Source: Candidatus Daviesbacteria bacterium (lineage in GTDB: Bacteria; Patescibacteriota; Microgenomatia; Daviesbacterales; UBA10151). From it: DNA of 64,000 bases. A program made the translations under genes and the position numbers. This document shows positions 4,799 through 49,645 of the stretch, one piece after another; position 1 is the first letter of the stretch, and each line of letters starts with the position of its first letter. The notes below the pieces were generated by a model that did not search any database, was not told the origin of the DNA, and saw only the letters and a list, made by a program, of their open reading frames with translations. Where the stretch lies: contig JACOXG010000012.1 in the NCBI GenBank assembly GCA_016176405.1, forward strand, positions 2,217 through 66,216, in the 5' to 3' direction.

Positions 4799-4826
4799 CA
4801 GTACAACACTGTGCCACTATCATTTA

Positions 4827-4844
4827 AAATGATTCAAATCATTT
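4827..4844. promoter_or_regulatory. 18-bp inverted repeat AAATGATT-ca-AATCATTT (candidate operator), copy 1, overlapping the start codon of the YerC-like gene
   Basis: Two perfect 8-bp arms with a 2-bp spacer. The identical 28-mer ttaaaatgattcaaatcatttaaacaaa recurs at 5301-5328. Confidence 0.5.
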
Positions 4845-4850
4845 AAACAA

Positions 4851-5300
4851 ATGACACAGGTCTCAAGATACCCAATTTCCAAAGAGGTTTATGAAAGATG
4901 CTGGGAAATATTTGTAAAGACTTTAATAGGGATTCACAATGTCAAAGATGCTGAGATAGTTATTAATGATTTGCTAACCCCTACCGAACGGATCATGTTA
5001 GTAAAAAGATTAGCAACAGCATTACTTTTAATGCAGGGATATGAATATCGAGAAATTAGCAAAGTTTTAAGAGTCAGTCTGCCAACCATATCCGCAGTTA
5101 ACAGATCTTTAAGATATGGCAGTAATGGTTACAATAAAGCACTTTCTAAAATCTTAAAAGATGAACAGTTTGCAGAATTTCTTAATAAAATGATCCAAGG
5201 CATAATTGCTCTGCCAGCTCGAGGGGGGATAGGCTCGGGAACGTATAGGTATCTTAGACAAGAACTCCAGAAAAGGTCAAAAGACAGAAAAGCCTTCTAG
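4851..5300 (+). CDS. YerC/YecD (TrpR-like) family HTH DNA-binding protein
   Basis: LLTPTERIMLVKRLATALLLMQGYEYREISKVLRVSLPTISAVNRSL matches the Trp-repressor-like YerC family signature. The gene is bracketed by identical 28-bp repeats at 4824-4851 and 5301-5328. Confidence 0.6.
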   Translation: MTQVSRYPISKEVYERCWEIFVKTLIGIHNVKDAEIVINDLLTPTERIMLVKRLATALLLMQGYEYREISKVLRVSLPTISAVNRSLRYGSNGYNKALSKILKDEQFAEFLNKMIQGIIALPARGGIGSGTYRYLRQELQKRSKDRKAF

Positions 5301-5303
5301 TTA

Positions 5304-5321
5304 AAATGATTCAAATCATTT
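5304..5321. promoter_or_regulatory. 18-bp inverted repeat AAATGATT-ca-AATCATTT (candidate operator), copy 2, upstream of the histidine-phosphatase gene
   Basis: Identical to copy 1. It lies immediately after the YerC-like stop codon and 17 nt before the next ATG. Confidence 0.5.
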
Positions 5322-5338
5322 AAACAAAGTGAAAAAAA

Positions 5339-13494: not shown

Positions 13495-14119
13495 CCCGGT
13501 TGGTTTTAGAATGGGCATTGGTACAAGCTGGCAATCACGCTGGTTTGCTACTGATAATAAATACAAAGAATTTATTGCTGAAGATCTAAAAATTAGAGAA
13601 CTGTTGATGAAAAAACTTCGTCCAGCAGGGATTGGCAAGATAGAAATAGAAAGGTCAAGCAATAAAGTGAAAATAATTATTCATGTGTCTCGCCCAGGAG
13701 TATTGATTGGTAGAGGAGGTACTGGACTGGAGGAACTGAAAAATTTCTTGATGAAAAATTTAAACATTAAAGATAAGAATTCTTTGGAGGTAGTGCCTAT
13801 GGAAATTAGAGCTTCTGATTTATCTGCATATCTGGTGGCTCAATCAGTGGCTGAACAACTGGCCAAAAGAATGCCTGCTCAAAGGGTAATGAATCAAACT
13901 GTAGAAAGAGTAATGAGAGCAGGAGCCAAAGGAGTGAGGGTGGTTTTATCCGGCCGTATTGGTGGAGCAGAAATAGCCAGACGTGAGTGGAAGGCCAGAG
14001 GGACCATGCCCCTCCATACTTTAAGAGCAGATATTGATTTTGCTGTATATCCTGCCCTGACCAAATCCGGTTATGTGGGAGTAAAGGTTTGGATTAATAA
14101 GGGTGAGGTTGAGATATGA
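13478..14119 (+). CDS. rpsC: 30S ribosomal protein S3
   Basis: GTG start after an AAAGGAG SD. MGQKINPVGFRMGIGTSWQSRWFA...KH domain...LIGRGGTGLEELK. Overlaps the rplV 3' end by 17 nt. Confidence 0.92.
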   Translation: MGQKINPVGFRMGIGTSWQSRWFATDNKYKEFIAEDLKIRELLMKKLRPAGIGKIEIERSSNKVKIIIHVSRPGVLIGRGGTGLEELKNFLMKNLNIKDKNSLEVVPMEIRASDLSAYLVAQSVAEQLAKRMPAQRVMNQTVERVMRAGAKGVRVVLSGRIGGAEIARREWKARGTMPLHTLRADIDFAVYPALTKSGYVGVKVWINKGEVEI

Positions 14120-14182
14120 TAACCTCACCCTTGCCTTTTTGGCTTCGCCAAAAACGTAAAGGAGAGGTAGAAAGGTAAAATT

Positions 14183-14603: not shown

Positions 14604-14888
14604 GTGAAAAAACGAGAATTGACACAAATTAAAAGTTTACCAGTCAAAGAGCTAATTTTAAAAGCAAAAGCCATCAAAGGAGAAATAGCAAATTTAGTGA
14701 TTGATAAAAATATCAAAAAGTTAAAAGATACCAGATCTATTTTTAAAAAAAGAAAAGATTTGGCTCAGGTTTTAACAATTATCAGGCAAAAACAATTACT
14801 TGAAAAATTAGAATCTAGAGTCGAGAGTCAAGAGTCTAGTAAAGAAGTGTCAAAAGCTGAAACAAGAAAGGAGAAAACTAGTCTCTAG
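14604..14888 (+). CDS. rpmC: 50S ribosomal protein L29 with a C-terminal Lys/Glu/Ser-rich extension
   Basis: ELTQIKSLPVKELILKAKAIKGEIANLVID...LAQVLTIIRQK matches the L29 fold. A GTG start at 14604 follows a GAGAAAGGTGAG SD. An alternative TTG at 14583 overlaps rplP. Its tail contains a 35-nt repeat shared with recX. Confidence 0.75.
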   Translation: MKKRELTQIKSLPVKELILKAKAIKGEIANLVIDKNIKKLKDTRSIFKKRKDLAQVLTIIRQKQLLEKLESRVESQESSKEVSKAETRKEKTSL

Positions 14889-14911
14889 ACTCTAGCGACT
14901 AGTCACTACTT

Positions 14912-16002: not shown

Positions 16003-16020
16003 GTTGAGCGGACTCATGAA

Positions 16021-16090
16021 GGAGATCCTTCGACTCGCTTCGCTCGCTCAGGATGACAACAAAAGTTTAGAAATTATACTTTTGTTGTCA
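16021..16090 (+). repeat. family-1 palindromic repeat element, copy 1 (intergenic rplX-rplE)
   Basis: ggagatccttcgactcgcttcgctcgctcaggatgaca + hairpin TGACAACAAAAGT-ttagaaattata-ACTTTTGTTGTCA. It ends 1 nt before the rplE start. See 22077-22181 and 47786-47854. Confidence 0.8.
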
Positions 16091-16091
16091 A

Positions 16092-16637
16092 ATGACCATG
16101 AACAGACTTAAAGACAAATATCTAAAAGAAGTACAGGCTAAATTACAACAAGAACTGGGACTAAAGAACAGATTGGCCATACCCCGTTTGGATAAGATAG
16201 TCATCAGTATAGGTCTGGGAGAGGCCAAAGACAACAGTGGCATTTTAGATAAAGTTAAAATTTATTTGGCTGCTCTGGTTGGACAACAACCTGTTATAAC
16301 TTATGCTAAAAAATCTGTTGCTACTTTTAAAGTTTCTAAAGGTCAACCTATTGGGATGATGGTGACTTTAAGAGGTGATAAAATGTTTGCCTTCTTGGAT
16401 AAGTTAATTAATATTGTTTTACCCAAGGTGAGAGATTTTAAAGGTATCTCGGAAAAGTCCTTTGATACTCAAGGGAATTTAAATATTGGACTAAAAGAAC
16501 AGATTATTTTTCCTGAGGTAGATTATAAAGCAATTGATAAAGTGAGAGGTCTGGCTGTTACCATTACCAGCACTGCCAAAAATAAAGAGGAAGGGAGAAA
16601 ACTTTTAGAGGCATTGGGAATGCCGTTTAGGAGTTAA
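16092..16637 (+). CDS. rplE: 50S ribosomal protein L5
   Basis: [42 protein letters not shown]...[31 protein letters not shown] matches L5. Confidence 0.93.
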
Positions 16638-20373: not shown

Positions 20374-20406
20374 GGACTAAAGTCTTTGCGATCCTTCGGA
20401 TCTAAA

Positions 20407-20468
20407 GGACCTGCTCGCACTTCACTATGGAATATTATAGTTCGTGCTCGCAGAACCTTGCCTTTTTA
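20407..20468 (+). repeat. family-2 hairpin repeat, copy B (intergenic secY-adk)
   Basis: ggacctgCTCGCACTTCACtatggaatattataGTTCGTGCTCGCAGaaccttgccttttt. Matches 13062-13116 and the reverse complement of 49591-49645. Confidence 0.7.
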
Positions 20469-21825: not shown

Positions 21826-22068
21826 ATGATACAAGATGTAATTGAAATAGAGGGTAAGGTTGTGGAAGTTTTACCTAATACTTTATTTAGAGTTGAAATT
21901 GAGGAAAGTCGCGATCTGCCTGAACTGGTAGGCAGAGTCATCTTGTGTCATATATCAGGCAAGATGAGAATGCACTATATTAGGCTTTTGGAAGGAGATA
22001 AAGTTAGAATAGAGATGAGTCCGAAATATGATTTGGATAAAGGAAGGATAACATTTAGAATAAAGTGA
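21826..22068 (+). CDS. infA: translation initiation factor IF-1 (with a ~12-aa internal insertion)
   Basis: [18 protein letters not shown]...[36 protein letters not shown]. An [12 protein letters not shown] insertion lies in the S1-like fold. Confidence 0.88.
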
Positions 22069-22076
22069 CACGAAGT

Positions 22077-22181
22077 GTCATCCTGAACGAAGTGAAGGAT
22101 CTGATTACGAGGGAGATCCTTCGACTCGCTTCGCTCGCTCAGGATGACAGAAAAATTTAAGAAATTATAATTTTTCTGTCA
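22077..22181 (+). repeat. family-1 palindromic repeat element, copy 2 (intergenic infA-rpmJ), long form with extra inverted arm
   Basis: tgtcatcctgaacgaagtgaaggatc ...gatccttcgactcgcttcgctcgctcaggatgaca + hairpin TGACAGAAAAATT-taagaaattata-AATTTTTCTGTCA. Confidence 0.8.
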
Positions 22182-22188
22182 ACTAACA

Positions 22189-22305
22189 ATGAAAGTACAA
22201 GCAAGTATTAAAACAAGATGTAAGTTTTGCAAAATCGTTAAACGCGAGGGTATCTTGTACGTGATCTGTCCAAGAGATCCAAGACACAAGCAGAGACAAG
22301 GATAA
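22189..22305 (+). CDS. rpmJ: 50S ribosomal protein L36
   Basis: Manual translation gives [38 protein letters not shown] (38 aa). It is below the ORF-track cutoff. Canonical position between infA and rpsM. Confidence 0.88.
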
Positions 22306-22340
22306 AATACTTGTCCTGAGCGACTGAAAGGAGTCGAAGG

Positions 22341-22802
22341 ATGGCTAGAATTGCAGGAGTTGATTTACCAGAAAATAAAAGAGTTGATATTGGTTTAACC
22401 TATATCTTTGGGATAGGTAGATCCAATGTGATTCAGATTATAAAAAAAACAGGTATTGATGAAACAAAAAGAGTAAAAGATTTAACAGAGGAAGAAATTA
22501 ATAAATTACAAAAGGCTGTTGAGGAATTTAAAGTAGAGGGAGATTTATCCAGAGAAATTGAGCAAAATATTAAGAGATTAGAAGAAACTGGAAGCTATAG
22601 GGGAATCAGACATAGAAGGGGATTACCTGTCAGAGGGCAAAGGACTAAATCTAATGCTAGAACAAAACGAGGTAAAAGAAAAACAGTTGGGACAGTCAGG
22701 AAAGAGGCTGCGGCCAAAATGGGCGCTCCATCTGTTGTAGCTGGACCGACTAAAGAGGCTCAACCTCAAGTGAGCAAAGAAGTGGCCAAGGAAGGGGTAT
22801 AA
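22341..22802 (+). CDS. rpsM: 30S ribosomal protein S13 with a C-terminal extension
   Basis: [30 protein letters not shown]...[24 protein letters not shown] matches S13. The RBS and ATG are embedded in a family-1 repeat arm. Confidence 0.92.
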
Positions 22803-26129: not shown

Positions 26130-27542
26130 ATGGATTTACCCCCTGAGAAGATTTTTAAAAGTTATGATATTAGAGGAATTTATCCTGATCAGTTAAATGA
26201 ACAATTTGCCATCCCCATTACCAAAGCCATTTATAAACTTATTTCTGATCAACTAAATACCACTAAACCTCTCACTATTGCCGTAGGACGTGATATGAGA
26301 TTATCTTCTCCTGCTATTTTTGAGGCAGTTTCTAAAACTTTGGTGGAATTAGGTACAGAAGTGATTGATTTAGGAATTGTTTCCACCCCCACTTTTTATT
26401 TTGCAGTTTATAAATTTGGATATGACGGTGGGATTCAAATCACTGCCTCGCATAATCCCAAAGAGTATAACGGTTTAAAGATTGTTAGAAAATCGAAAAG
26501 TGGACTTATCAAAATTGGTAAAAATACTGGTATGGAAGATATTAAGAAAATGAGTAGAGAAGGGGTGGATATTGTTGCTCGAGGAAAAGGCAGTATTACC
26601 AAAAAAGAAGGGGTAGCTGAAGAAGAGGTACAAAATGCTTTAAAAATTGCAGGCTATCCTAATATTAAAAAATTTAAAATTGTGGCGGATGCAGCAAATG
26701 CCTTAGGAGCTTTATATATTGATGCTTTATTTAAAGCTATCCCTGGGGATTTAATAAAAATGAATTTTGAGCTAGATGGTACTTTTCCAGCTCACCCGGC
26801 AGATCCACTTATACCAGAAACTTTAAAAGATTTACAAAAAAAAGTTTTGGAGGAAAAAGCAGATTTTGGACTGGCCCCGGATGGAGATGGGGACAGATTA
26901 ATTTTTATTGATGAAAAAGGCCAAATCATTCCTGCCTCTTTGATCACTGCTTTGGTGGCCAAAGAGATACTATCCGAGAAAAAAGGGGAAACTATTCTTT
27001 TTGATATTCGCTATATTTTAACTCCTAAAAAAATTGTTGAGGAATACCAAGGTAAATATGAAATTACCAAAGTGGGACATGCTTTTATTACAGAAAAAAT
27101 GCACCAAACAGGTGGGATTTTTGCCGGTGAATCATCCGCCCATTATTTTTTTAGAGAGACTGGTAATGCTGAATCACAACTACCAATAATTTTAATAGTT
27201 CTTAAAGTAATGAGCCGCGAAAATAAATTAATTTCAGAGATTGTCGGATCGCTAAAGAGGAGTCATGAATCAGGGGAGATTAATTTCAGGGTGAAAAATG
27301 GCTTGGAAATAATCGAGGCTTTAAAGGAGAAATATTCGGATGCAGAAATTAGTGAATTGGATGGGATAGCAGTATCTTATAAAGACTGGCGATTTTCCAT
27401 TAGAACATCTAACACCGAACCATTGCTTCGTCTTAATGTTGAACATATTGGAAAAGAAGATTTGGAGGGTAAAACTCAAGAGATAATTGAGGAAATCAAA
27501 AAGCATGCAGTGTTTGAGGGTCCTTCGACAAACTCAGGATGA
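26130..27542 (+). CDS. phosphoglucomutase/phosphomannomutase family protein
   Basis: YDIRGIYP...ITASHNPKEYNGLKIV (active-site Ser)...APDGDGDRLIFID...GESSAHYFF. The last 8 codons and the stop lie inside a family-1 repeat copy. Confidence 0.88.
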   Translation: MDLPPEKIFKSYDIRGIYPDQLNEQFAIPITKAIYKLISDQLNTTKPLTIAVGRDMRLSSPAIFEAVSKTLVELGTEVIDLGIVSTPTFYFAVYKFGYDGGIQITASHNPKEYNGLKIVRKSKSGLIKIGKNTGMEDIKKMSREGVDIVARGKGSITKKEGVAEEEVQNALKIAGYPNIKKFKIVADAANALGALYIDALFKAIPGDLIKMNFELDGTFPAHPADPLIPETLKDLQKKVLEEKADFGLAPDGDGDRLIFIDEKGQIIPASLITALVAKEILSEKKGETILFDIRYILTPKKIVEEYQGKYEITKVGHAFITEKMHQTGGIFAGESSAHYFFRETGNAESQLPIILIVLKVMSRENKLISEIVGSLKRSHESGEINFRVKNGLEIIEALKEKYSDAEISELDGIAVSYKDWRFSIRTSNTEPLLRLNVEHIGKEDLEGKTQEIIEEIKKHAVFEGPSTNSG

Positions 27543-27560
27543 CGAATTAGGAAATTTGTC
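27516..27560 (+). repeat. family-1 repeat element, short copy overlapping the pgm 3' end
   Basis: gagggtccttcgacaaactcaggatgacgaattaggaaatttgtca. Hairpin TGACGAAT/ATTTGTCA. The stop codon TGA lies within the conserved caggaTGAca. Confidence 0.65.
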
Positions 27561-27597
27561 ACTTGCCAAAATAATTTGATTATGATTTAATAATAAA

Positions 27598-30012: not shown

Positions 30013-30060
30013 TTTATTGGCAAAATATGTTGTTTAAATGATTTAAATCAATGGAACAAT

Positions 30061-31501: not shown

Positions 31502-32713
31502 ATGCAAAAAGGTTTCACGCAAATTATTTTTATTATAATAATTCTCCTTGCTTCTGGTGGTATTGTTGTTGGATCATATCTGATTAAAAATAATTTAAAG
31601 AATGTTTCTTCTAATAGTGCTAAAAATGTTGAGTTCAATCACCAACAAACTTCCCAGAAAACTCCAGAAAGAATTGATTTTGATAGTTCTTGTTTTCCCC
31701 AAGATATTTATAAGGATAAAGCTGTTTGTATAGATGAGGCAGGACAAGTTAATTTATTAGAATTACCTTCTATGAAGAAGACCCAAATTACTAATGTTAC
31801 TTCAAGGAAATATTTTGCTCAAATTGAAGGAAATTATATAGCCTGGTTAGATGAACGAGCACAAGTTGTAGGTAGTACATCAACTAGAAATGGAGTTAGT
31901 GGTCCAGTTCGACAAGATAGAATAGGACAAGATATCTTTCTATATAATTTAACAACTAAAGAAGAAAAGAAAATAACTACCACACCCGCAACAAGAACTG
32001 AACTTCAACTAAATGAAAACTATATTGTCTGGACTGAACAAAGAGGCGATATAACTTTAGAGAACTATAGAAAGAATGAAATTCACATCTTTGATATTTC
32101 ACTATCAAAAGAGATTTTTTCTTCTACAGTAAGTAGCACTAAAAAACAGTTGCGTTTATGGAAAGATAAACTGGTGTGGGCTGATAGTAGGAATGGAAAA
32201 GATACTGGTTGTGATAATTGTGCAAACAATAGATTTGATATTTATTTATATGATTTTAAAACTGGTCAGGAAAAAATTTTAGTAGAAGGTCCTTATCTTA
32301 AAATAGATCCTGATATAGAAGAAAATAGCTTAGTATGGATAGATTACAGAAACAAAATGTCAGATGTTTACTTAATGGATATTTCTACTGGTAAGGAAAA
32401 GCAAATTACTAATGCTAATGACAATGAGGTGAATTCACGAATAGAAAATGGTAGGGTATTTTGGTCTGTCAGATGGGCATGTGATGTTGGGCCCATTAAA
32501 ATTGCCACTGGATCGGGGTCACAAATAAAATCCCCCAGCTCCCAATTTGGCGATTTGGATACTGGTGTATATGTTTATAATTTGTCTACTCAAGAGAAAA
32601 AGAAACTGACAGATTATGTAGAACCATCATTTATAGTTTCTGGTAACTTAGTGGTTATTGGGGAAGGTTGTCATGGTGTTAAGCCCAAAGTTTATGGAAT
32701 ATATGTAGATTAA
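31502..32713 (+). CDS. secreted/membrane-anchored PD40 (TolB-like) beta-propeller repeat protein
   Basis: N-terminal TM helix. Repeated Y-I/V-x-W-x-D/E-x-R blades (YIAWLDERAQ, YIVWTEQRGD, KLVWADSRNG, SLVWIDYRNK, GRVFWSVRW). Confidence 0.45.
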   Translation: MQKGFTQIIFIIIILLASGGIVVGSYLIKNNLKNVSSNSAKNVEFNHQQTSQKTPERIDFDSSCFPQDIYKDKAVCIDEAGQVNLLELPSMKKTQITNVTSRKYFAQIEGNYIAWLDERAQVVGSTSTRNGVSGPVRQDRIGQDIFLYNLTTKEEKKITTTPATRTELQLNENYIVWTEQRGDITLENYRKNEIHIFDISLSKEIFSSTVSSTKKQLRLWKDKLVWADSRNGKDTGCDNCANNRFDIYLYDFKTGQEKILVEGPYLKIDPDIEENSLVWIDYRNKMSDVYLMDISTGKEKQITNANDNEVNSRIENGRVFWSVRWACDVGPIKIATGSGSQIKSPSSQFGDLDTGVYVYNLSTQEKKKLTDYVEPSFIVSGNLVVIGEGCHGVKPKVYGIYVD

Positions 32714-32894: not shown

Positions 32895-33017
32895 CTATAG
32901 GATCTTAAGAGGATAATTCTCTACCCTATCTTTATAACTTATGATGTATGGATACATCCAAACAAGAAGCTATTTTGGGGTATTGACATTCGGTAAATAT
33001 ATGGTTATAACACTTGT

Positions 33018-34079
33018 ATGGTTCAAGATAATGGTGATGCAAAAAAGGCAGCAATCTCCGCAGCTTTAGCTCAAATTCAAAAACAATATGGTATGGGTTC
33101 AATCATGAGGCTGGGTGAGAGAACAGAGAAACTAACTATGCAGGTTATTCCTACAGGTTCCATAGCCTTGGATCTTGCTTTAGGAGTTGGGGGTCTGCCC
33201 AAAGGTAGAATTGTAGAAATTTTTGGCCCTGAGGCATCAGGGAAAACCACAGTTTGTCTTCATATTATTGCTGAGGCTCAAAAAAAAGGAGGAGTGGCAG
33301 CCTTTATTGATGCAGAACATGCCCTAGATCCCCAAAGAGCTCAAAAAATAGGAGTTAATTTAGATGATTTACTTATTTCTCAACCAGATACCGGCGAGCA
33401 AGCATTAGAGATTGCTGAAGCTTTGATTAGATCAGGAGGAATTGATGTTTTGGTAATAGATTCGGTGGCAGCTTTAGTACCAAGGGCGGAACTGGAAGGT
33501 GAGATGGGAGATGCTGTTATGGGAATGCAAGCAAGGCTTATGTCTCAAGCTTTACGTAAGTTAACAGGTGCAGTTTCCAATACTAACACGATTATTATTT
33601 TTACCAATCAGCTCAGACAAAAAATTGGAGTGATGTTTGGAAATCCAGAGACTACTCCCGGTGGATTGGCCCTAAAGTTTTATACTTCCATCAGATTAGA
33701 TATTAGAAAAATTGAAAATATTAAGTCAGCGGACATAGTCGTTGGGTCAAGACACAGAGTAAAAGTTGTTAAAAATAAAGTTGCTCCCCCATTTAGAATT
33801 GCTGAGTTTGATATGGACAATCAAGGTATTTCTCACGAAGGAGAACTGTTGGATGTAGGGATTGAACTGGGGATTATCCAAAAGAGCGGAGCATTTTTAA
33901 AGTGGAATGATGTCATGTTAGGGCAAGGTAGAGCTGCAGCTATAGAATATCTGAAGACCAATAAAAAAGATGCCCTGGCTTTGGAAAAAGAAATCAGAAA
34001 CTCCTGGGGAAAAGAGAAAAAATCTGATATGGTGGTGGGTCAAGAAGAAGACGCAGGAGCAATTCAAGAAGCAGTTTAG
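33018..34079 (+). CDS. recA: recombinase RecA
   Basis: [29 protein letters not shown] (Walker A)...[10 protein letters not shown]...L1/L2 loops. Confidence 0.95.
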
Positions 34080-34096: not shown

Positions 34097-34774
34097 ATGC
34101 CCAAAATTACCTCAGTTGAACCTCAGAAAAAAACCCTTAGACTTCGCTCAGGGCAAGGTCCGCACAGATTTAATATTTTTTTAGATGGAGTGTTTGCTTT
34201 TGGGGCAGATGAGGATTTGGTGGTAGAAAATAGGTTAGTGGAGGGAAAATTACTTGACACATCCGATGTGGAACAGCTGTTATTTGAGGCAGAGGTAGGA
34301 AAATTGATGGAGAAGATGTATGGACTTTTTAATATCAGACAAAGATCTGAAAGAGAAGTCAGGAATTATTTTAGAGTCAAGAATCTAGAATCTAGAATCA
34401 AGGGTAAAGAAGAAATAAGCGATTTAGCAATTGAGTTAGTTATTAAAAAGTTAAAACAAAAAAATCTAATAAATGATGAGGAATTTGCCAAAGCTTGGGT
34501 AGAATCAAGATCCAGAAAGTATGGCATAAATAGAATAAAACAGGAACTTTTTCAAAAAGGGATTAATAGAGAAATTATAGAGGAAGTGACTAGAGTCGAG
34601 AGTCTAGAGTCTAGTGAAGAAGTGGCCCAACAACTTTTGGAAAAGAAGATGAGAGTATGGAAAGATTTACCAATTTTAGAATTTAAAAAGAAAGCTTATG
34701 AGTTTTTAATGAGAAGGGGTTTTGAGTTTGAAGTAGTTAAGGCTGTTGTTGAAAAATATCTTAAAAAAGAGTAA
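34097..34774 (+). CDS. recX: recombination regulator RecX
   Basis: Lies immediately downstream of recA. Three-helix repeat architecture ...INDEEFAKAWVESRSRKYGINRIKQELFQKGINREIIEEV...KAYEFLMRRGFEFEVVKAV. Confidence 0.75.
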   Translation: MPKITSVEPQKKTLRLRSGQGPHRFNIFLDGVFAFGADEDLVVENRLVEGKLLDTSDVEQLLFEAEVGKLMEKMYGLFNIRQRSEREVRNYFRVKNLESRIKGKEEISDLAIELVIKKLKQKNLINDEEFAKAWVESRSRKYGINRIKQELFQKGINREIIEEVTRVESLESSEEVAQQLLEKKMRVWKDLPILEFKKKAYEFLMRRGFEFEVVKAVVEKYLKKE

Positions 34775-47233: not shown

Positions 47234-48226
47234 GTGAATACTAAAATATTAACTATTTTAGGTCCTACTGCAACAGGTAAAACTGACCTAGCCTTAATGG
47301 TGGCAAAAAAATTTAATGGAGAGATTATTTCTTGTGATTCCAGACAAGTTTATAAGGGCTTGGATATCGGCACGGGAAAAATGCCAAATGCCAAATTACA
47401 AATTACAAAAGGAGATAGCTTTTGGGAAATAAACAGCATAAAAGTTTGGATGTATGATATGGTGGATCCAAAAAAAATATATTCTGTGGCGGATTATGTT
47501 AAAGATGCAAATAGGGTAATTGGGGAAATTAAGGATAGAGGAAAGTTGCCAATTATAGTTGGAGGTACAGGACTTTATTTAAGAGCCTTACTGGAAGGAT
47601 TAGATAGTCTTTCAATACCAATTGATAAAAAATTAAGAACTGAGCTACAAAAACTTTCATTAGTTGAGCTTCAAGAAAAATTACAGGAGGTAGATGCTAA
47701 AAAATGGAAGAAAATGAATGACTCTGACAGACAGAACCCAAGAAGGTTGGTAAGAGCTATTGAATTGGCTTTGTCAAATCATGTGGGAGATCCTTCGGTC
47801 GCTACGCTCCCTCAGGATGACAAACTGCGTTTAGAGATTATACGCAGTTTGTCAAATGTGCTAAAGGTTGGTCTAACTGCGCCAAGAGATGTCCTTTATA
47901 AAAGAGTTGATGAGCATGTGGTTTTTAGAATTAACCAAGGCATGATTGATGAGGCAAAAAGACTTTATAAAAATAGTTTAAGTTTAAAAAGGATGAGACA
48001 GCTTGGTTTGGAATATGGAGTTTTGGCAGATTATTTAGAGGAAAAAATTAAAAGTAAAGAGGGCCTAATTAAAATCTTGCAGCATAAAATTCATGGCTAT
48101 GTCAGACGTCAACTGACTTGGTTTAAAAAAGAAAAAGAGGTAAATTGGTTTGATATTTCTGATCAAGATTATATTAAGAAAATAGAAAAATTAGTCAGCA
48201 TTTGGTATGATCAATCCATAGAATGA
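47234..48226 (+). CDS. miaA: tRNA dimethylallyltransferase, carrying an in-frame family-1 repeat insertion
   Basis: LTILGPTATGKTDLALMVAKKFNGEIISCDSRQVYKGLDIGTGK P-loop. Residues GDPSVATLPQDDKLRLEIIRSLSN are encoded by repeat copy 3. Confidence 0.88.
   Translation: MNTKILTILGPTATGKTDLALMVAKKFNGEIISCDSRQVYKGLDIGTGKMPNAKLQITKGDSFWEINSIKVWMYDMVDPKKIYSVADYVKDANRVIGEIKDRGKLPIIVGGTGLYLRALLEGLDSLSIPIDKKLRTELQKLSLVELQEKLQEVDAKKWKKMNDSDRQNPRRLVRAIELALSNHVGDPSVATLPQDDKLRLEIIRSLSNVLKVGLTAPRDVLYKRVDEHVVFRINQGMIDEAKRLYKNSLSLKRMRQLGLEYGVLADYLEEKIKSKEGLIKILQHKIHGYVRRQLTWFKKEKEVNWFDISDQDYIKKIEKLVSIWYDQSIE
47786..47854 (+). repeat. family-1 palindromic repeat element, copy 3, in-frame inside miaA
   Basis: ggagatccttcggtcgctacgctccctcaggatgaca + hairpin TGACAAACTGCGT-ttagagattata-ACGCAGTTTGTCA. 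The stem is fully compensated relative to copies 1 and 2. Confidence 0.8.
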
Positions 48227-49206: not shown

Positions 49207-49565
49207 GCCTAGGAAGAAGGATGATCACCCCGCACCAATCTGGTGCGGGGAGGAAAGTCCAGACAGCACAGGGCAGGGTGGTTCGGGTAACCGGACTCGG
49301 GTAACCGCAAGTAAAGAGTAACAGAGACGATCTGGGTGACGCCAGGTGAAACGACCAAGTGACTGGGTATTCGATAAGCAAAGGGCTATCAGTCCTGAGC
49401 GAAGTCGAAGGACAATCCTCCCCGCTGCAATCCTAGAAACAATCGAGCTGCTCGCTCAATGATTGAAGTCAGGAGCAGTCGCCTAAGGCGACTCAGGATG
49501 ACAAAAATCATACTGAAGATAAATGATCATCTAGAAACAGAATCTGGCTTACTTTTTTCCTAGGC
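49207..49565 (+). ncRNA. rnpB: RNase P RNA (bacterial type A-like)
   Basis: P1 GCCTAGGAAG...CTTTTTTCCTAGGC. P3 CCCCGCACC-aatc-GGTGCGGGG. P4 GGAAAGTCC. ACAGGGCAGGGTG. ...ACAGAATCTGGCTTAC 3' P4 strand. Contains a ~130-nt segment with family-1-like arms. Confidence 0.75.
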
Positions 49566-49590
49566 AATTTTTTTGCCGACGGAAAAAAGC

Positions 49591-49645
49591 AAAGTTCTGC
49601 GAGCGTGAAGTAAAATATTTAATACTGAAGCGCGAGCAGGTCTTT
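49591..49645 (-). repeat. family-2 hairpin repeat, copy C (minus orientation, downstream of rnpB)
   Basis: The reverse complement aaagacctgctcgcgcttcagtattaaatattttacttcacgctcgcagaactttgc aligns with copies A and B. Confidence 0.65.

Follow-up and report, generated by a model that had tools for sequence, protein, structure and literature searches.

Repetitive extragenic palindromic (REP) sequences, together with REPINs and bacterial interspersed mosaic elements (BIMEs), are RAYT-associated repeats of Proteobacteria. They consist of short palindromic units of 20-40 nt, which are repeated head-to-head or tail-to-tail. Compensatory changes are common in the hairpins of REPINs (PMC3116915). REPs are also found in open reading frames (ORFs) and supply stop codons, and a GTAG (or CGTC) tag is part of their definition (PMC3733652). 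The repeat family described here was found in a 64,000-nt stretch of Candidatus Daviesbacteria DNA (contig JACOXG010000012.1, positions 2,217 to 66,216 of the forward strand), which we call the window. It shares the short palindromic units and their paired arrangement, positions 22077-22149 of the window being a head-to-head doublet that folds; its hairpins carry compensatory changes, its termini can supply stop codons and some of its copies are in ORFs. Unlike REPs, it lacks the GTAG/CGTC tag, and the loci searched contain no match to Y1 TnpA. It is also built differently, as a composite in which a generic block rich in GC is joined to an AT-rich hairpin whose 11-nt loop is conserved, and its host has a candidate phyla radiation (CPR) genome of about 1 Mb, in which copies stand in ribosomal-protein operons directly before start codons.

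Rickettsia palindromic elements (RPEs) invade protein-coding ORFs and RNA genes (PMC1166351). The Daviesbacteria family likewise comprises small palindromic repeats of a reduced genome, with intergenic, in-frame coding and RNA-gene copies, and the inserted peptide lies in a variable protein segment, presumed to be a surface loop. An earlier note on the window, made from its letters, had compared the family with RPEs. This comparison is well founded, as copies are located at gene starts, one is in frame in miaA, block-like pieces occur in an RNA gene, and copies are present or absent at orthologous sites. RPEs are single families of 100-150 nt, whereas the Daviesbacteria element has a 37-nt hairpin module that a generic block gains or loses. 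The sequences appear unrelated, the CGTC tag is missing and the host is not Rickettsia.

Correia elements (NEMIS or CREE) of Neisseria combine 26-bp terminal inverted repeats with a TA target duplication and a site for integration host factor (IHF), and they carry promoters. They resemble the Daviesbacteria element in being miniature palindromic insertions near gene starts, with promoter-like hexamers and an RNA hairpin when co-transcribed. The 26-bp terminal inverted repeats, the TA duplication and the IHF site were not seen in the Daviesbacteria element. The ends of IS200/IS605 insertion sequences, which are HUH substrates, provide a further analogy, in that a conserved loop and foot with a free stem interior would suit a structure-specific enzyme acting on single-stranded DNA. 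In contrast to those systems, the Daviesbacteria loci have no tnpA or HUH gene match in the searched sequence, and no pairing between a guide and a cleavage site was identified. Nor was any insertion sequence seen in the loci that could have served as a MITE parent.

We put the chances at about even that the family is a lineage-specific, REP/REPIN-like and probably non-autonomous mobile palindromic DNA element of Candidatus Daviesbacteria. It is made of two modules, a generic GC-rich block and, folding back on the terminal TGACA of that block, an AT-rich hairpin specific to Daviesbacteria. The family is new, as is its host group, but the kind of element is already known.

A repeat finder identified one family in the window, with three 85-nt copies at 16018-16102, 22109-22193 and 47782-47866 (copies 1 to 3). 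Each full copy consists of a 38-nt block, GGAGATCCTTCG..CTCAGGATGACA, followed by TGACA-N8-11-nt loop-N8'-TGTCA, and in all three the hairpin has a perfect stem of 13 bp closed by a loop of 11 nt. Perfect hairpins whose stem reaches 11 bp or more number only five in the 64 kb, three of which are the family copies, against 0-2 in shuffled sequence. The family hairpins are much more stable than shuffles, as RNA or as DNA (z -3.6 to -7.7). An unfiltered run of a covariance model based on 18 members of the family scored the full copies at 71-77 bits and added just two collapsed derivatives in the window, at 27531-27569 (+) and 22058-22089 (-). The three full copies claimed by the earlier note are therefore real by repeat finder, hairpin scan and covariance model. 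The one that it placed at 22077-22181 is present, but 22077-22102 is an inverted partner block and not the 5' block. It had also described the stems as completely different between copies, which goes too far: the TGACA/TGTCA foot (5 pairs) and the T-A that closes the loop do not vary, and of the 8 inner pairs only 3-5 differ between copies. Copies 1 and 2 differ at three stem pairs and their 38-nt blocks are identical.

The family extends beyond the window. One genome per GTDB species was scanned with the pattern GGATGACA-N8-T-N5-ATTAT-N8-TGTCA, in which the N8 arms were free and complementarity was not required. This gave 16 loci, of which 15 are true members, all in metagenome-assembled genomes (MAGs) of Daviesbacteria or Microgenomates; the sixteenth, from Clostridium, has only 5/8 pairs. 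Three of the MAG records, with seven loci, are labelled 'Gammaproteobacteria', and in the two of these that include the ribosomal operon the ribosomal proteins are about 80% identical to those of the window. JGI metagenomes were scanned with a second pattern, TGACA-N8-T-N3-A-N-ATTATA-N7-TGTCA, in which the block was not required. Seventeen of its 48 hits have at least 6/8 N8 pairs, and all but two of these are preceded by ..CTCAGGA, the end of the block; the remaining 31 hits pair at chance level and many resemble ordinary promoters. Since the palindromic hits carry the block end and the block-less hits pair at chance, the hairpin is found only on the block, with two exceptions. Pattern scans gave about 31 copies beyond the window, all in Daviesbacteria or Microgenomates. 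Among PLSDB plasmids there were two weak hits, and among INPHARED phages there was none.

The stems are kept paired by compensatory change, as had been proposed. Over 18 copies, 97.4% of stem cells are standard pairs, compared with 75% after shuffling and 31-44% with slid partners, and both sides have changed at 7 of the 8 variable stem pairs. When 34 distinct copies are pooled, 257/272 variable stem pairs are Watson-Crick and there are at least 17 different perfect stems, which are connected by single-pair steps. The 15 mismatches include two G.T and seven A.C (element plus strand). Two copies, in L041 and L020 (L numbers are our labels for other genomes and contigs), have the dinucleotide TC where GA is expected. 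The suggestion that a MITE-like element regenerates its palindrome was not borne out, and compensatory change has already been described for REPINs (PMC3116915). The possibility that N8 is a copy of the 3' flank, or a guide matching the target, was also considered; it is unsupported in copies 1 and 2 and in the miaA alleles.

The 5' block has a far wider distribution than the hairpin. A block of the form GATCCTTCG-N(3-30)-CTCAGGATGAC occurs exactly at least 181 times in at least 120 IMG/VR contigs, with GC contents of 0.34-0.70. The general form is GAGATCCTTCG-X-CTCAGGATGACA, where the variable interior X is frequently a small perfect hairpin. Among the IMG/VR matches listed, A follows GATGAC in 87% of blocks, so the left foot TGACA of the hairpin is the block end. 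An inverted partner lies head-to-head within 150 nt in 40% of these blocks, against a background of 2.7%, and 11% have a tail-to-tail partner. A head-to-head doublet like that of the window is also found in L007, L008, L011, L013 and L018. To judge from its sequence and arrangement, the block is a generic, widespread palindromic module of many uncultivated bacteria, organised like REP doublets and BIMEs, and its occurrence across contigs of 34-70% GC suggests a larger unnamed repeat superfamily. No Rfam family matched the block arrays in ten block-rich contigs. Neither block nor hairpin was found described in the literature searched by sequence strings and by topic. The novelty claimed in the earlier note does not extend to the 5' block, with its many IMG/VR matches.

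The IMG/VR contigs in which the block GATCCTTCG-X-CTCAGGATGACA is abundant (L068-L187) are labelled viral. One of them, L156, is crowded with repeats of several families, among them REP-like units that bear a GTAG tag (..GCCGCCCCTAC). In the window, a block-like sequence, CTTAGACTTCGCTCAGGGCAAGG, at 34137-34165 encodes the peptide LRLRSGQG, close to the N-terminal end of ORF 34097-34774, and from its sequence it looks like a further member of the wider block class in a coding region.

Copies are gained, lost and exchanged as modules. We compared three related genomes with the same ribosomal operon, and four more with an identical RpmJ. Between infA and rpmJ there is no insertion in L189 and L192, where the two genes overlap (TAATG), and the spacer is 11 nt long in L190; L191 has the left inverted block alone, L017 has the right block and hairpin alone, and the window has both. 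The mini hairpin of L191, TGACGC-TTT-GCGTCA, is a compensated change relative to TGACAC-GAA-GTGTCA in the window. The rplP-rpmC spacer is filled in L019 and empty in the window, and the rplM-rpsI spacer is filled in L015 and empty in the window and L017. Between rpmJ and rpsM the block-only fragment of 22314-22341 gives the window 32 nt more than L015, located precisely between TAAAAT and the ATG of rpsM, and this precise empty/filled pair shows no target-site duplication. L191 has an extra 149-aa ORF between the same two genes (1322-1771), with no recorded Pfam hit.

Copies within a genome are mosaics, as in window copies 1 and 2 and in a pair of L019 copies that have their stem and 3' flank in common and different blocks. 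Such mosaics suggest that sequence is copied from one copy to another, or converted over short tracts. The centre-deleted derivatives at 22066-22080, in L191 and at 27540-27561 are still palindromic. Given the known instability of palindromes, such derivatives are what processing of the hairpin tip in DNA would be expected to yield.

The third window copy is in miaA, whose protein is identical to an NCBI entry from Candidatus Daviesbacteria. A comparison of 120 MiaA homologues reveals a hypervariable segment between NPRRLVRAIE and (V/I)LKIGLTAPR, which in many lineages encodes repeat-derived peptides (ILSGAKDL, LLRFARND, IPAYAGMT, FDFAQDHLRG); this indicates that the segment is a hot spot for palindromic-repeat insertions. 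The copy is in frame in four lineages. The four hairpin alleles all have perfect stems, with AACTGCGT in the window and L194, ATTTGGGT in L004 and AAGTGCTT in L195. A fifth allele, from L193, has the block only and exactly 33 nt (11 codons) fewer. The TGTCAAAT repeat that flanks the miaA copy resembles the 5' end of the element itself (TCRAATCATG) in other copies. The block class may be the source of the 'ILRxAQDD', 'SLRMT' and 'VILSEAKDL' peptides often seen in spurious ORFs, and peptides akin to this type occur in MiaA homologues. The family is a concrete source of hypervariable repeat-derived peptide segments in CPR proteins.

Three independent Logan assemblies contain the miaA copy in identical form and orthologous copies are found in other MAGs, so the assembly chimera raised as a possible refutation was rejected. 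The features of the window are listed in Table 1.

Table 1. Family copies, derivatives and block-like sequences in the 64-kb window.
Feature	Position	Strand	Context
Copy 1, 5' extension GGACTCATGAA	16010-16020	+	common to orthologous L019 copy
Copy 1, GC-rich block GGAGATCCTTCGACTCGCTTCGCTCGCTCAGGATGACA	16021-16058	+	rplX-rplE spacer
Copy 1, hairpin TGACAACAAAAGT / loop TTAGAAATTAT / ACTTTTGTTGTCA	16054-16090	+	
Mini hairpin TGACAC-GAA-GTGTCA	22066-22080	.	tail of inverted partner block
Inverted partner block GTCATCCTGAACGAAGTGAAGGATCT	22077-22102	-	head-to-head doublet with block 22112-22149
Copy 2, block	22112-22149	+	infA-rpmJ spacer
Copy 2, hairpin TGACAGAAAAATT / TAAGAAATTAT / AATTTTTCTGTCA	22145-22181	+	
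Block-only fragment TCCTGAGCGACTGAAAGGAGTCGAAGGA	22314-22341	-	upstream of rpsM
Collapsed copy, short block GTCCTTCGACAAACTCAGGATGAC and 8-bp hairpin TGACGAAT-TAGGAA-ATTTGTCA	27520-27561	+	
Copy 3	47776-47854	+	in miaA ORF (47234-48226), in frame, coding ..NHVGDPSVATLPQDDKLRLEIIRSLSN..
Copy 3, 5' extension AAATCATGTGG		+	
Copy 3, block	47786-47822	+	
Copy 3, hairpin, stem AACTGCGT	47818-47854	+	
Block-like hairpin GTCCTGAGCGAAGTCGAAGGAC	49392-49413	-	RNase P RNA gene, expanded P13/P14 region (Rfam alignment)
Exact block end CTCAGGATGAC	49492-49502	+	RNase P RNA gene, expanded region near P18; no hairpin after

Copies are inserted where genes meet and in coding loops that are permissive (with one open frame translated), and they can provide a gene with its stop codon. 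For infA this is the TGA (22066-22068) of the mini hairpin, and the stop codon of ORF 26130-27542 is the TGA (27540-27542) in the GGATGAC of the collapsed copy. The earlier note was right that copies abut gene starts and imprecise about the distances: the hairpins of copies 1 and 2 both end 7 nt upstream of the ATG, at 16098 for the likely start of rplE and at 22189 for rpmJ. The second copy is composite, with the mini hairpin, inverted partner block, spacer, forward block and full hairpin in that order, and 22066-22181 is predicted to fold as a single strand into three abutting helices with no linkers. The only Shine-Dalgarno (SD)-like AAGGAG motif upstream of rpsM is within the block-only fragment. 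Of the partial copies suggested earlier, 27516-27560 corresponds to the collapsed copy and 22306-22343 to the block-only fragment, and 49383-49514 resolves into two block-like pieces of the RNase P RNA gene. The RNase P RNA (49209-49567, Rfam 116.6 bits) has no normal P13 and is expanded by 51 and 37 nt; block-like sequences lie in these expansions, which are possibly repeat insertions tolerated in the ribozyme.

Insertions between coupled ribosomal-protein genes, in the RNase P RNA gene and in miaA show that even compact CPR genomes harbour mobile or selfish DNA. The family also helps to account for spurious ORFs and contig breaks in MAGs.

If the family is a mobile DNA element, its hairpin would form in single-stranded DNA and would be recognised through the fixed loop (T.RGAAATTAT) and the fixed foot (TGACA/TGTCA), the middle of the stem having only to pair. 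Because the middle must pair while loop and foot are recognised, only perfect Watson-Crick stems would persist or be copied. Spread would be by transposition or short-tract gene conversion. Possible side effects would be an outward sigma-70-like promoter, or a compact fold that couples neighbouring genes.

Several results weigh against a mobile element. A tblastn search with the TnpA proteins of IS608 and IS200 (validated Y1_Tnp) found nothing in 423 kb of Daviesbacteria-type loci and 1.13 Mb of block-bearing contigs. None of the 34 copies has the GTAG/CGTC tag, their ends being (A)GGAGATCC, GATGACA and TGTCAAAT, and no clear target-site duplication or terminal inverted repeats were seen in the copies compared. 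Copy numbers by the strict pattern are only 3-5 per genome, with 4-5 in each of two other genomes. The orientation of copies is biased towards the sense strand, which would also suit a role at the RNA level. Finally, orthologous copies are conserved far above neutral sites, which an insert-and-decay selfish element does not predict. The neutral benchmark was 4-fold degenerate sites, which are near saturation; the window is identical to L017 and L019 at 26-47% of them and to L194 at 57%, with 28% expected at random. Window copy 2 and the L017 copy match at 68/70 positions (p about 1e-21 at 45% identity), their hairpins being identical at 36/37, and the hairpins of copy 3 and L194 match at 34/37 positions. 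Such conservation implies conversion, re-insertion, or a host-level function or selection at the site. The allelic series (empty, block only, block and hairpin, doublet) and this conservation together offer a tractable test of element-level selection, conversion and host function.

A host-level RNA element is a possible alternative, although we consider it rather unlikely. Here the hairpins would fold in polycistronic mRNA and selection in situ would keep the stems paired; the three infA-rpmJ helices would bring stop and start codons together, with effects on translational coupling, mRNA stability or processing. The contiguous helices of 22066-22181 and the above-neutral conservation of orthologous copies fit this, as does the placing of copies. 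In co-directional gene contexts 14 copies are sense and 5 antisense, and there are 2-3 in-frame copies in addition (the ORF in L013 is possibly spurious). About 16/34 copies end at most 20 nt upstream of a start codon in the same orientation, 6-10 nt being a frequent distance. The pairing itself argues the other way, as a selected mRNA hairpin should tolerate G.U and disfavour A.C, and among 272 pairs there are only 2 G.U against 7 A.C. At least 5-8 copies are antisense to flanking genes and half of these are still perfect; copies in this orientation extend over the 3' end of the gene opposite them and are able to supply its stop codon. The hairpin also stays perfect in the miaA ORF, where it needs to be unwound, and the conserved loop sequence is left unexplained. 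Rfam gave no matching family: searches of the window at the gathering score, of the locus at E up to 10 and of ten block-rich contigs returned only RNase P, tRNA-Pro and chance-level hits. The rarity of G.U relative to A.C, the antisense copies and the centre-deleted palindromic derivatives therefore favour a Watson-Crick constraint at the DNA level over mRNA structure, on small numbers. Of the two kinds of structural selection that the earlier note had left side by side, the DNA-level one is thus preferred.

It is also unlikely, in our estimation, that the hairpin is a structure-specific signal, read through loop and foot by a Daviesbacteria protein and held by purifying selection at essential operons and in miaA. 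It might then be a promoter-plus-hairpin cassette or a single-strand DNA site, and the block would be part of a pan-bacterial, unnamed REP-like superfamily (..CCTGAGCG-X-CGAAGG..) that is also the source of spurious peptides.

Less probable is a portable promoter, in which ATGACA at the block end is the -35 element and TATAMT, formed by the loop end and the first stem bases, is the -10 element after a 16-nt spacer. This would drive the following gene, and conservation of the foot and loop would reflect promoter function. Two hairpins do give the best sigma-70-like matches in 15.5-23 kb, copy 2 with ATGACA-16-TATAAT (11/12) and copy 1 with ATGACA-16-TATACT (10/12). The chance metagenome hits of the loop-and-foot pattern resemble TTGACA-17-TATAAT promoters, and the first A of the right arm is invariant though one pattern left that position free. 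Starts without an SD motif, or leaderless ones, are apparently common, as an SD motif is present in just 19/59 window genes and in recA TTGACA-17-TATAAC stands 6 nt before the ATG. A promoter needs no pairing between its spacer and the downstream arm in the initially transcribed region, so this reading cannot account for the covariation. By orientation, 19 copies point to a downstream gene on their own strand and 9 do not, while at least 2 lie within ORFs. The -7T is present in 22/34 copies only, copies occur in ORFs, antisense and in the middle of ribosomal operons, and ATGACA is the generic block end in genomes of every GC content. As a side activity of the mobile element, a predicted promoter is plausible.

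In recA (32985-33020), TTGACA-17-TATAAC is followed by 6 nt and the ATG, which suggests that its mRNA is leaderless. A -10-like hexamer is located 6 nt before the ATG in several other genes, for example at 31502 and 46056, and the organism appears often to use SD-less or leaderless starts. The idea that the hairpin displaces a needed SD site was dropped, given the 19/59 genes with such a motif.

Mutational self-correction, by which template switching at quasi-palindromes copies a change in one arm onto the other without selection, is very doubtful as the explanation. Such switching is established from hotspots in E. coli and in these organisms is assumed by analogy. It would fit the strictness of the Watson-Crick pairing, which shows no preference for wobble pairs whatever the context or orientation, the TC for GA in L041 and L020, and the centre-deleted derivatives, which suggest hairpin formation in DNA, but it explains neither the conservation of loop and foot at orthologous sites where neutral sites are saturated nor the constant association of block and hairpin.

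Other repeats are present in the window. A second family, of 63 nt and 83% complementary, has copies at 20405-20467 (+) and 49583-49645 (-), with the consensus AAAGACCTGCTCGCRCTTCA..ATATT.TA..TTC..GCTCGCAGAAC.TTGC. The first occupies the spacer between secY and adk, a spacer of 0-6 nt in three related genomes, and the second is just after the RNase P RNA gene. A third family consists of CTAGAGTCGAGAGTC(A/T)AGAGTCTAG units at 14794-14907, 34364-34405 and 34569-34624. One of its copies lengthens both the rpmC ORF, at its 3' end, and the spacer that precedes rpsQ, and two are in frame in ORF 34097-34774, downstream of recA.

A 28-nt repeat, TTAAAATGATTCAAATCATTTAAACAAA, is present in identical form at 4824-4851 and 5301-5328, directly upstream of consecutive genes (4851, 5339). 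A third copy at 30033-30060 is 79% identical. The repeat has a palindrome, AAATGATT-C-AAATCATTT, inside it and may be an operator. A perfect 12-bp hairpin at 14099-14132, AAGGGTGAGGTT-GAGATATGAT-AACCTCACCCTT, is unrelated to the family; it overlaps the end of rpsC and is upstream of rplP.

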